Source: a virus (lineage: Duplodnaviria; Heunggongvirae; Uroviricota; Caudoviricetes). From it: a DNA stretch of 9,560 nucleotides. The position numbers and the translations under genes were made by a program. Numbering within the stretch: position 1 is the stretch's first letter; each line of letters begins with the position of its first letter. The notes beneath the pieces were generated by a model. The model was not told the origin of the DNA and made no database searches. It was given only the letters and a program-made list of their open reading frames with translations. Positions 3,807 to 7,449 of the stretch are shown piece after piece. Where the stretch lies: IMG/VR virus record IMGVR_UViG_3300029070_000029. The stretch is one strand, 5' to 3'.

Positions 3807-4664
3807 CTAATTGGGTGATAACAGATCCTGTGTATGGGAGTTTCCCTTTTTGCGTGCGTTGATGCTGGTAACGGCAAACGTCATGATGAACAAAACCGCG
3901 AATAAGACGACAATCGTCGGAGCTGGTGCGCTGTCGATAAAAAAGGACAACCAGACACCAGTCATTGACACTATTACCGATATGCCAGTCGCCAGTAGGA
4001 GCGCAATATGAAAGCGTTGTGTCAGGAGTACCGCAATGGCGCCAGGCGCAATGAGCAGAGAAATGGAGAGAATGATACCTACCGCTTTCAGCGTCGCCAC
4101 AATGGTCAGGGAGACCATGCACAGCAGCCCATAATGCAGCCATCTCGTATGCAAACCGCTTACCTGCGCCTGTTGATAATCAAAGCTGAACAGCAAAAAA
4201 TCCCGCCATTTTACGCTAATAACAAGTGTAACCAGCCCGGCAATAATCATCGTCTGGATTATATCGCCGATGGTTATCCCGAGCATGTCGCCGAAAAGAA
4301 TATGGTCAAGATGTACGTCTGGTTTGACTGCAATATACAAGATCAGACCTGCGGCAAACATGCCAGAAAAAACAATCCCCATCACTGTATCTTGCTTGAT
4401 TCGGCTGTTGTCTTTCAGGTATCCCGTCGCCACCGCGCAGAATACTCCGGCGACGAATGCCCCTGTAGCCAAAGGTAACCCCAGAATCCAGGCAAGCACG
4501 ATGCCAGGAAAAACCGCATGACTCATCGCGTCACCCATCAGTGCCCAACCTTTCAGGACCAGAAAGACCGACAGCAGCGCACAGGGTATGGAAACTACCA
4601 GTGAAATCAGCAGTGCGTGACTCATAAAGGTGAACTGCAGTGGCTCCAGTAATAATGCCATCAT
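3807..4664 (-). CDS. sitD: Mn2+/Fe2+ ABC transporter permease, second membrane component (SitD/YfeD type)
   Basis: 285-aa polytopic membrane protein with ABC-3 permease character, paralogous to the upstream permease. Its start overlaps the sitC stop by 4 nt. It is the last gene of a four-gene A-B-C-D operon. Confidence 0.8.
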   Translation of the reverse strand: MMALLLEPLQFTFMSHALLISLVVSIPCALLSVFLVLKGWALMGDAMSHAVFPGIVLAWILGLPLATGAFVAGVFCAVATGYLKDNSRIKQDTVMGIVFSGMFAAGLILYIAVKPDVHLDHILFGDMLGITIGDIIQTMIIAGLVTLVISVKWRDFLLFSFDYQQAQVSGLHTRWLHYGLLCMVSLTIVATLKAVGIILSISLLIAPGAIAVLLTQRFHIALLLATGISVIVSMTGVWLSFFIDSAPAPTIVVLFAVLFIMTFAVTSINARKKGNSHTQDLLSPN

Positions 4665-5518
4665 GAGCGATCCTCCAGCGCCTTATGCGCACGCCGACGA
4701 TTTGCCAAAAGCCCATGGGTGGGCGCAAAGACAAATGCTAAAAGAAACAGCAGTGTCTGCGCCACCACGATGATTCCACCTGTCGCGCCGTCCAGAAAGT
4801 AACTGACCCACGCGCCGAGGAAACTGGTTACACTGCCAATAGTTACAGCAATCATGAGCAGGCGGGGAAAACGATCGGTTAACAACCATGCTGTTGCACC
4901 GGGAGTCACCACCAGACAGATCACCAGAAAGGCACCAACCGTTTGCAGCGCCGCAACGGTCGAAACCGACAGCAGGGTGAAGAAGAGGAGTTTTAATCTG
5001 CCCGGATGCAATCCAATAGCACGGGCGTTATTCTCGTCGAAAAAGGTCACCATAAGATCTTTCCATTTGAAAAAAAGCACGATGATCGAGAGAATGCCAA
5101 TGATATTGAGTTGCAGGATATCCGCCGGATCGATTGCCAGAATATTGCCCAGGACGATGGTCTGAATGTTCACAGATGTCGGGTTCAATGACACCATAAA
5201 CAGCCCCAGGCCAAAAAAGGACGAGAAGATCAGACCGATGATGGCATCTTCTTTTAAGCGGGTGCGTTGGTTAAGAAACAGCATGCTGCCCGCAGCCAGT
5301 CCGCCGGAAAAGAAGGCTCCCAGAGAAAACGGAAGCCCCAGCATATATGCCCCCGCAACACCCGGGACAATAGAGTGCGACAACGCATCGCCAATCAGCG
5401 ACCAGCCTTTTAGCATCAGATAGCATGACAGGAAAGCGCAGAGACCGCCGACCATCGCCGAGACCCACATCGCATTGAGCATATATTCATAGCTGAAGGG
5501 TTCCAGTAGCACGTTCAT
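4661..5518 (-). CDS. sitC: Mn2+/Fe2+ ABC transporter permease, first membrane component (SitC/YfeC type)
   Basis: 285-aa polytopic membrane protein. Its start overlaps the sitB stop by 4 nt (ATGA). Position and order fit sitABCD. Confidence 0.8.
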
Positions 5519-6342
5519 CTTTCTTCCCTCTGCACCGCTGACGGTCGATGAGCCACAAAAGGGCGTTCATCGTCAGTAATAATGCTTTCTTCCGAGCCGT
5601 TAAGTGTGACATGGCGCAGTACGCCGCTAAAAGCCAGCTCTAGGTTCTCGGCTGTAAAAGTGGTGTCTGTCGGCCCGCTTGCCAGGACGGTGCCTTTGAC
5701 CATGACCGTATAATCGCAAAATGTCGTGACGGATCCGAGATTGTGTGTTGAGACAAGCATCGTTTTGCCTTCCGCGCGTAACTCCCTCAACAGGCTGATG
5801 ATTTTGGCTTCGGTTTTCACATCAACGCCAGTAAAAGGTTCATCCAGCAGGATCACATCACCCTGCTGTGCAATCGCTCTCGCCAGAAAGACGCGTTTCT
5901 TTTGTCCACCGGAAAGCTCGCCGATTTGTCGATGGCGAAAATTCACCATATCGACACGTTCCAGCGCATCGGTGACAATTTGACGATCCCTCTTTTTGGC
6001 GATACGCAACATACCCATATGCCCATAGCGGCCCATCATCACCACATCTTCCACCAGTACAGGAAATGACCAGTCAACCTCTTCTGACTGAGGGACGTAG
6101 GCAACCAGGTTTTTCTGTAACGCCTGTCGCGTGGGAATACCCAGAACAGATATCTTTCCGCTGGTCAGACGCACAAATCCCATAATCGCTTTAAACAACG
6201 TCGATTTTCCGGAACCGTTTACCCCAACCAGAGCGGCAATAGATCCACTTGGTACTGTGAAGGATGCATCGCGCAGTGCTGTGTGCCCGTTATGCCAGGT
6301 GACAGCAACATCATTAACGACAATGCCTGCAGATTGCATCAT
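5515..6342 (-). CDS. sitB: Mn2+/Fe2+ ABC transporter ATP-binding protein (SitB/YfeB type)
   Basis: 275 aa with Walker [13 protein letters not shown] signature LSGGQKKRV and Walker B ILLDEP. Its start overlaps the sitA stop (TAATG on the minus strand). Confidence 0.85.
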
Positions 6343-7256
6343 TATTTCTCCCTTTTCCCGGCTTTAATTCCCTGTACCAGCGTACTGGTAGTAACCTTAA
6401 GAAGGTCGATATACGTCGGTACCGGGCCGTTTTCTGTGCTCAGGGAATCGACATAGAGCACACCGCCGTAGTGTGCGCCGGTTTCACGCGCAACCTGACG
6501 CGCTGGTTTATCGGAAATCGTACTCTCGCTAAAGACTGCCGGGATATGATTTTTCTTAACTATATCAACAACCTTACGTACCTGCTGCGGTGTTCCTTGT
6601 TGATCGGCATTAATCGGCCACAGATAAAGCTCTTTTAGCCCCAAATCGCGTGCGAGATAAGAAAAAGCCCCTTCACTGGTGACCATCCATCGCTGATTCT
6701 CAGGGAGTTCCGTAATCTGCTTACGCAGGGGGGCAAGGGTTTGGGTAATCTTGGCTTTATAAGTATCGGCATTGCGTTGGTAGGTTTGTGCATTTGCCGG
6801 ATCGTATTTTATCAACGCATCACGAATATTATCGACGTAAATCAGAGCATTATCTGGCGACATCCATGCATGGGGGTTAGGTTTGCCCTCATAGGGTCCT
6901 TCGGTGATCCCTACAGGCGTCACACCCGAAGAGACAATTACTTCTGGAACCCCATTGAGATGCTGGTAAAAGCGTTGGAACCACAATTCCAGATTCATAC
7001 CATTGGCGAGAATCAGTTGTGCCCCCTGCGCACGTTTAATATCGCCAGGGGTAGGCTGATACTCATGAATTTCTGCACCAGGCTTGGTTATGGATGAGAC
7101 TTCTGCAGCATCTCCCGCCACGTTTTTGGCCATATCCGCGATGATGGTAAATGTTGTAATGACCTTAAATTTTTCAGTTGCACTTGCCTGAAATGCGATC
7201 GAGCAGGTGAGTGCGAGGCCCCCCAAGAGCATGGTTACTTTTTTTATTGAGCGCAT
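6342..7256 (-). CDS. sitA: Periplasmic Mn2+/Fe2+-binding protein of the cluster A-I (TroA-like) family (SitA/YfeA type)
   Basis: 304 aa with an N-terminal signal peptide ([26 protein letters not shown]) and a metal-binding-protein-like body. It is the first gene of the operon, immediately downstream of the MntR/Fur-type operators. The true start could be the internal Met at codon 9. Confidence 0.8.
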
Positions 7257-7288
7257 AATTTAGTACCTATAGTGAGCAAAATTAGAAC

Positions 7289-7310
7289 AAACATAGCAAC
7301 GGCTATGTTT
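7289..7310. promoter_or_regulatory. MntR-type operator (perfect 9-bp inverted repeat) in the sitA promoter
   Basis: AAACATAGC-aacg-GCTATGTTT, a perfect palindrome 33-54 nt upstream of the sitA ATG. It matches the E. coli MntR box as I recall it (AACATAGC-N4-GCTATGTT). Confidence 0.7.
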
Positions 7311-7332
7311 TATAGCATAACCTATACAGAAT

Positions 7333-7351
7333 GAAAATGATTATCATTAAC
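7333..7351. promoter_or_regulatory. Fur box in the sitA promoter
   Basis: gaaaATGATtATCATTAac matches the 19-bp Fur consensus GATAATGATAATCATTATC at 16 of 19 positions by my hand alignment. It lies ~77-95 nt upstream of the sitA ATG. Confidence 0.65.
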
Positions 7352-7449
7352 ATCTTTGAGGCCCAAAACAGGGATTAGTTTGTTTCCTGCTGGATGAAAG
7401 GACTCTTGGGATAGCACATGCCGCACGAAGAGCAGCATTACATGATGTT

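Follow-up and report, generated by a model that had tools for sequence, protein, structure and literature searches.

A sitABCD operon as probable moron cargo at the icd junction of a phage 21-type lambdoid prophage

This analysis revealed that a 9,560-nt stretch of viral DNA (IMG/VR record IMGVR_UViG_3300029070_000029; the whole stretch is referred to as the window) is, almost certainly, the right end, from tail fibre to att, of a phage 21-type lambdoid prophage in icd that carries the metal-uptake operon sitABCD as a moron. The sit cassette, of about 3.6 kb, occupies the slot of the non-essential b region of lambda. An initial annotation, made from the sequence alone, had placed an operon at 3807-7360, between the tail-fibre module and the icd att junction and convergent to the phage late genes. 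These coordinates hold: four intact, overlapping open reading frames (ORFs) lie on the minus strand, and the end at 7360 takes in the regulatory region. The tail genes (32-3715) and the icd fragment (8172-8337) flank the operon as proposed, and the operon is convergent with the late genes because the four late-type ORFs are on the plus strand and sit on the minus strand (Table 1). The layout of an icd prophage with sitABCD has already been published; it is common in E. coli and has been described for phage 21 and many isolated phages. The additions made here are limited to the extent of the cassette (about 3792-3800 to 7393, with a cut tail-fibre-assembly (tfa) remnant and limits shared with ColV plasmids) and to the mosaic make-up of the prophage. 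Since the arrangement, the Fur box and expression in a lysogen are all on record, no open question becomes newly testable.

With regard to the transporter, the genes follow the order A-B-C-D with overlapping junctions (1 nt between sitA and sitB, TAATG; 4 nt, ATGA, both between sitB and sitC and between sitC and sitD) and include two ATP-binding cassette (ABC) permeases of the ABC-3 family, as in the Sit/Yfe type (cluster A-I). All four have the lengths of the RefSeq SitA, SitB, SitC and SitD of E. coli IAI39. SitB scored 589 bits against the dedicated Mn/Fe ATPase model NF011630 (cut-off 393), covering model positions 1-274 of 274. Among solved structures, the closest to SitA is YfeA of Yersinia pestis (420 bits, ungapped), with 352 bits for cyanobacterial MntC and 45-72 bits for ZnuA chains. 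The metal ligands of SitA, His64, His129, Glu195 and Asp270, align with the metal site of YfeA at an offset of 12, and their counterparts there are presumably His76, His141, Glu207 and Asp282. SitA is a periplasmic binding protein that has the ZnuA/TroA fold, and its metal site is of the His-His-Glu-Asp type. A His-rich loop is typical of ZnuA; given that the alignment to YfeA is ungapped, SitA has no insertion that could accommodate one.

A zinc-specific importer of the ZnuABC type, or a transporter of another class, has next to no chance of being the correct assignment. The Pfam family of the binding protein does bear the name 'ZnuA', and models of the zinc proteins AztB and AztC match below threshold, but the ZnuA and ZnuB equivalogs reached only 66-78 bits against cut-offs of 268-284, while the ATPase passes the Mn/Fe equivalog and SitA shares the YfeA site without a gap. 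In addition, the operators upstream of the operon are those of MntR and Fur, not a Zur box. On the equivalog scores, the YfeA-like site and the operators, this alternative was rejected at the sequence level, in agreement with the class given in the initial annotation. The four genes are an intact, predicted Mn2+/Fe2+ ABC importer of the Sit/Yfe type (cluster A-I). Uptake of both ions has been demonstrated, and a role in virulence established, for the Sit homologues of Salmonella, Shigella and avian pathogenic E. coli (APEC) (review PMC3852070).

The position of the operon relative to the phage is defined by the displaced 3' end of icd. A sequence running from CTGCTGCGCCATATGGG (at about 8173) to just past the icd terminator (at about 8389) is common to the window, phage 21 and both prophage ends in strain 1105. 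To the left of this shared stretch the window holds phage DNA, and to its right chromosomal DNA, where the phage has three arm-type sites and int. In genomes free of the prophage, alignment with the window begins only at 8173-8178. As expected of an icd-integrating element, the last ~165 bp of icd are duplicated and the displaced copy adjoins iraM. These alignments identify the region at 8172-8337 as the int-distal prophage junction, attR in lambda nomenclature. The integrase and excisionase of phage 21 type would lie beside a reconstituted icd at the other end, outside the window; they are present in phage 21, Lambda_4C10 and strain 1105.

The analogy that had been drawn with the e14 element of K-12 and its mcrA gene proved exact, the order in K-12 being pinE-mcrA-icdC-iraM. 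Both elements use the same integration site, both have iraM after a displaced icdC, and in both the interval from the tail-fibre/tfa/pin region to icdC harbours an accessory gene. In contrast to the window, e14 is a defective element with a P2/Mu-like tail and carries the restriction enzyme gene mcrA together with pinE instead of sit; compared with e14, the sit cassette stands in place of the tfa-pin segment.

Carriage of sit by phages, as the initial annotation had implied, is borne out by phage genomes. In the phage collection, 35 records match the cassette, 27 of them over at least 80% of its length and 26 at an identity of at least 99%. At 99-99.9% identity, the same layout recurs in virion-derived genomes, namely those of phage 21 and of about 27 further lambdoid phage isolates. 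The DNA of phage 21 (OL657228) was extracted from CsCl-purified virions, and the authors of that study listed multigene virulence loci among the morons of this phage (Feiss et al. 2022, PMC9119081). The cassette, left of the att junction in the window and present in virion-derived genomes, lies within the packaged phage genome. Phage 21 has the order side tail fibre, small ORF, 97-aa membrane ORF, convergent sitDCBA, icd' pseudogene, terminator, attP, int and xis, and it follows the same integration logic at icd; it is 99.2% identical to the window over 3410-7393 and 92.6% over 7892-8389. It differs in its tail fibre (78-85% identity over short stretches), in the absence of the 234-aa ORF with the S74 domain, and in the gap between sitA and icd', which measures 1.9 kb and includes about 1.5 kb with a 252-aa ORF (phrog_20520), whereas the corresponding DNA of the window spans 498 nt and contains a truncated phrog_12663 ORF. 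A literature search on phage 21 with sitABCD, and on bacteriophage 21 with icd and e14, returned no papers.

Lambda-type phages of the infant gut (Lambda_4C10, 4A7, 1H12, ev207 and others) likewise carry sitABCD as a moron with a Fur box. In a survey of temperate phages from infant E. coli, sitABCD was the most abundant virulence factor or moron, carried by 70% of the lambda-type phages and in every case accompanied by a Fur box (Mathieu et al. 2020, PMC6969025). The plaque-forming Lambda_4C10 is 99.4% identical to the window over 3410-8389, including the variant segment at 7394-7891, but has a different tail fibre, with an insertion sequence (IS). The active LF82 prophage Perceval, whose sitA-D genes are transcribed in the lysogen 4-13-fold above the prophage background (Misson et al. 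2023, PMC9928086), is also among the cassette matches.

These genomes bear directly on a different account, according to which sit was inserted into the chromosome beside an already integrated prophage, as an independent island outside the phage genome. In reviews, a 'PAI sit' is placed at several sites in the chromosome and its rearrangements are put down to homologous recombination, and the same cassette occurs on ColV-type plasmids, with 1061 plasmid places. However, the attP-arm DNA and the icd' junction are found to the right of the cassette, the sequence adjoining its left end comes from a phage (the tfa remnant) and not from the chromosome, and sit is at this same place in phage 21 virion DNA and in at least 27 further phages. 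An independent island is highly improbable, and this account was rejected as refuted by the virion-derived genomes that carry sit at the same place.

A complete relative of the moron-bearing prophage is found in strain 1105. Its cassette is identical to that of the window over 3594 of 3594 bases; the full sitD ORF, which starts outside the query, differs at one synonymous codon. The phage structural genes, integrase and second att copy that had been expected beyond the window are all found there: the prophage is complete, at about 49 kb, and comprises icdC, sit, tail, head, terminase, lysis, Q, O/P, cI and xis-int beside an intact icd.

Several points nevertheless weigh against reading the window as the end of a sit-bearing phage 21-type prophage. 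The window opens at the tail fibre gene, so the completeness and inducibility of its prophage are not visible within it. Its relatives include degraded copies, such as that of IAI39, where a Mu-like prophage adjoins a truncated lom. The transport activity and regulation of this copy are predicted from homology and operator sequences, the sit promoter was not called by a simple sigma-70 scan, and a terminator scan found no canonical or convincing terminator between the late operon and sitD. The residual uncertainty concerns only whether this prophage copy is still complete and inducible. In the source strain it could be a defective remnant, in which case sit would in effect have become a fixed island of the chromosome at icd, passed on by vertical inheritance and beyond mobilisation by this phage. 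Only the right end of the prophage falls within the window, the side tail fibre gene of strain 1105 is split into a pseudogene in addition to the damage in IAI39, the ORF at 7396-7689 is truncated, and at least 1067 genomes with sit adjoining icdC fit long vertical retention in lineages. Against this, all late-module ORFs in the window are intact, the stretch 3410-8389 matches the plaque-forming Lambda_4C10 as described above, and the arm-type site and att homology are kept. We consider a defective remnant unlikely, at well under even odds, and even if true it would alter only the present mobility of the window copy, not its identity.

The region upstream of sitA contains an MntR operator and a Fur box, both within 100 nt of the start codon. 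The MntR palindrome AAACATAGCAACGGCTATGTTT is matched with 0 mismatches, and 0 of 200 shuffled sequences matched it. The dual repression by Fur and MntR that characterises Sit/Yfe systems is represented here by operator sequences, with binding and regulation taken from the literature: in Salmonella, Shigella and APEC, both regulators are known to control the homologous sit operons (review PMC3852070). On the minus strand, a candidate -35-like element (TTTTCA) lies in the Fur box and a candidate -10-like element (TATAAA) abuts the MntR box. No Rfam model matched anywhere in the window at gathering thresholds, and the sit leader therefore has no recognised riboswitch or small RNA. When 3710-3810 was folded, neither strand stood out (z-scores of -1.6 and -2.0). 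As regards the promoter independence expected of a moron, sit is on the strand opposite to the late genes and has its own Fur/MntR upstream region, canonical flanking terminators were not found, and expression in a lysogen is known for the relative Perceval only.

These features suggest how the operon would work. In the lysogen, the late operon would be silent, and host Fur and MntR would release the sit promoter when iron or manganese is scarce. SitA would then capture periplasmic Mn2+ or Fe2+, which SitC and SitD together with SitB would import at the cost of ATP, and this import would support growth and peroxide resistance under metal limitation. Lysogeny is thus predicted to confer Mn/Fe uptake, a proposal backed by transcription in the Perceval lysogen and by the transport studies of Sit homologues. 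The phage would spread the operon by lysogenisation at icd and, by bringing along a 3' end of icd, would leave the host gene functional. In the lytic cycle, late transcription under antitermination might, speculatively, continue antisense into sitD, since no clear terminator intervenes. The arrangement would be a textbook case of lysogenic conversion, in which a temperate phage brings a host-regulated metal importer tied to extraintestinal and intracellular fitness without inactivating icd.

The limits of the sit cassette were established by comparison with sit-less phages and with plasmids. On the left, sit-less relatives (the prophage near prfC in APEC O1 and S88, and phage Tritos) are collinear with the window to 3791. 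The sit region of the ColV plasmid aligns with 3800-7393 at 97.7% identity, and the right breakpoint in the window is 7393/7394; in phage 21 and IAI39, the homology with ColV extends about 50-60 nt past this end. The left end cuts a tfa remnant whose reading frame breaks off after ..KKYRVLL, whereas sit-less phages read on to NRVDTSTAQDIEWPALP*, the C-terminal motif of K-12 TfaP/TfaE, and then into the pin invertase. A short microhomology, GGRTGTTGCT, is found at this junction; IS elements, transposase genes and terminal repeats were looked for at the cassette ends and none were found. The operon is dispensable, as the APEC O1/S88 prophage (99.9% identical to 3791), Tritos and PhiR49_1 carry the tfa remnant and pin but no sit.

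One possible history is that sit moves as a single discrete unit of about 3.64 kb, with the same ends in icd-integrating lambdoid phages and ColV-type plasmids (positions 3792-3800 to 7393; phage 21, IAI39 and ColV have about 50-60 nt more); this unit would have replaced tfa-pin in a single capture by illegitimate recombination and would later have been exchanged between phage and plasmid. The capture step is suggested by the left end, which cuts the tfa remnant at the GGRTGTTGCT microhomology. We put this history forward tentatively, at somewhat less than even chances. If it is true, phages, besides plasmids, have brought a virulence-associated transporter to nearly half of E. coli genomes.

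The window itself is a mosaic. Positions 1-3791 are 99.9% identical to the sit-less prophage at the prfC site of APEC O1/S88 (9970-13760 of the compared sequence), whereas 3410-8389 is of the Lambda_4C10 type, at 99.4%; the two halves overlap in the conserved 97-aa ORF, whose region (3410-3791) is a linker common to sit-bearing and sit-less phages. The exact 794-aa tail fibre protein is on record only in the sit-less prophage near prfC of APEC O1 and S88. These alignments indicate that prophages occupying different att sites have recently exchanged the tail-fibre module. The whole mosaic is absent from the complete RefSeq E. coli genomes, in which the best single place covers 84% of the window, and a 79-aa ORF of the window is not on record.

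The frequency of the cassette was determined with positions 3800-7393 as query against 5426 complete E. coli genomes. The cassette was present in 2384 of them, at 1683 chromosomal and 1061 plasmid places. Linkage to icd was assessed with a synthetic join of the cassette and 7892-9560, for which a coverage of at least 80% in one place was required; a match at this threshold means that sit lies within about 3 kb of icdC-iraM. This query was covered in at least 1067 genomes, about one fifth of all genomes and most chromosomal copies. For annotation purposes, a chromosomal sitABCD adjoining icdC-iraM, as in about one fifth of complete E. coli genomes, can be read as cargo of a phage 21-type prophage, and the plasmid allele as a separate lineage.

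The sit regions of ColV/ColBM plasmids (e.g. pAPEC-O2-ColV) contain the same four-gene operon and promoter as the window and share the cassette ends with phage 21, but their flanks consist of aerobactin, shiF, crcB-like and eno (enolase)-fragment ORFs. With a divergence of about 2.3%, the ColV-type allele forms a lineage of its own; in sitA, sitB and sitD, 38 codons differ synonymously and 23 non-synonymously. This count is compatible with purifying selection, although too small to weigh, and the corresponding counts against phage 21 (5:8) and IAI39 (7:7) are uninformative. In pAPEC-O2-ColV, sitC (5862-6720 of the compared stretch) shows a 1-nt gap relative to the window and is missing from the PLSDB gene table; the gap is probably a frameshift or a sequencing error. 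The sitABCD of Salmonella pathogenicity island 1 (SPI-1) and the yfeABCD of Yersinia represent the same four-gene operon, whereas their vehicle and flanks differ.

Table 1. Features of the window, with positions and the evidence for each (aa, amino acids).
Feature	Positions	Strand	Evidence
Side tail fibre gene, stf-like (794 aa), lambdoid late operon	32-2416	+	Pfam PF08400 phage_tail_N, E=1e-66; phrog_1419 tail protein, full length
Conserved phage ORF of 93 aa, tail-fibre module	2416-2697	+	phrog_1361, E=4e-46; syntenic in IAI39, Tritos and phage 21
Tail-fibre-domain protein of 234 aa with C-terminal S74 intramolecular chaperone domain	2707-3411	+	Pfam PF13884 (Peptidase_S74), E=4e-6; PHROG tail fibre families
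Putative membrane protein of 97 aa, last late-strand ORF	3422-3715	+	phrog_1443, E=6e-59; annotated as putative membrane protein in phage 21
3' remnant of tail-fibre-assembly (tfa) gene	3740-3791	+	Frame ..EEETPLLEARKKYRVLL, then diverges; cut by left end of sit cassette
Left boundary of sit cassette	3792-3800		Sit-less prophages and phages align to 3791; ColV plasmid from 3800
sitD, second ABC-3 permease (285 aa)	3807-4664	-	Pfam PF00950, E=1.5e-76; RefSeq name SitD in IAI39
sitC, first ABC-3 permease (285 aa)	4661-5518	-	Pfam PF00950, E=1.6e-82; RefSeq name SitC in IAI39
sitB, ABC ATPase (275 aa)	5515-6342	-	NCBIfam equivalog NF011630, manganese/iron ABC transporter ATP-binding protein
sitA, periplasmic Mn/Fe-binding protein (304 aa)	6342-7256	-	Pfam PF01297, E=9e-86
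MntR operator AAACATAGC-N4-GCTATGTTT	7289-7310		Perfect palindrome, 33 nt upstream of sitA start codon
Fur box	7333-7351		17/19 match (2 mismatches) to GATAATGATAATCATTATC; 0.01 expected by chance
Lambda_4C10-type variable segment (498 nt)	7394-7891	+	Breakpoint 7393/7394; replaces ~1.5 kb of phage 21/IAI39 DNA
5'-truncated ORF (97 aa) in variable segment, open from the 7393/7394 breakpoint	7396-7689	+	phrog_12663 positions 119-205 of 246
Phage attP left-arm DNA	7892-8171	+	92.6% identical to phage 21 27053-27332
Arm-type integrase site CTTTCCCCAAAA	8042-8053		Matches consensus annotated in OL657228; found by chance in 48/200 shuffles (a single match is not improbable)
Displaced icd 3' end, icdC-type pseudogene, 166 nt (last 54 codons and stop)	8172-8337	+	Translation; alignment with phage 21 icd' and both strain 1105 copies
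Bidirectional icd terminator hairpin	8360-8382		Terminator scan; phage/chromosome homology stops at ~8389
iraM, first chromosomal gene past the prophage	8439-8762	-	NCBIfam NF007393 anti-adapter IraM, 167 bits, cut-off 121; same neighbour in K-12 and IAI39

The ORF at 7396-7689 carries an RNKLAH motif (R-x4-H, HEPN-like), and the att-proximal slot that it occupies is taken in IAI39 and phage 21 by an unrelated ORF of 252-256 aa (phrog_20520). Pfam returned nothing for this ORF or for the 252-aa ORF of phage 21, and PADLOC gave hits of 13-15 bits only, the single one for the ORF at 7396-7689 being a weak hit of 13 bits to the HEPN region of Cas13b. This ORF resembles a truncated accessory gene of a phage, perhaps one with a defence function, although PADLOC scores this low are no more than a hint of such a role.

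Within the tail fibre gene, window positions 538-1009 (plus strand) contain tandem repeats, one of 189 nt (2.3 copies with 83% matches) and one of 42 nt, which encode an Ala/Ser/Thr-rich repeat region of 'KTSETNAK' type in the shaft of the side tail fibre. A Mu-like prophage of IAI39 (1-18973 of the compared stretch) with transposase, Gam, Mor, DUF935, head morphogenesis and virion morphogenesis genes lies directly to the left of the truncated lom, and was apparently inserted into a sit-bearing lambdoid prophage. A 43-nt direct repeat of the icd terminator region (8345-8387 and 9212-9254, 86% identical, spacing 867 nt) brackets the iraM segment. Strain 1105 is devoid of iraM and its sequence is joined at the icd terminator hairpin, which suggests that iraM has been gained or lost by recombination between these repeats.

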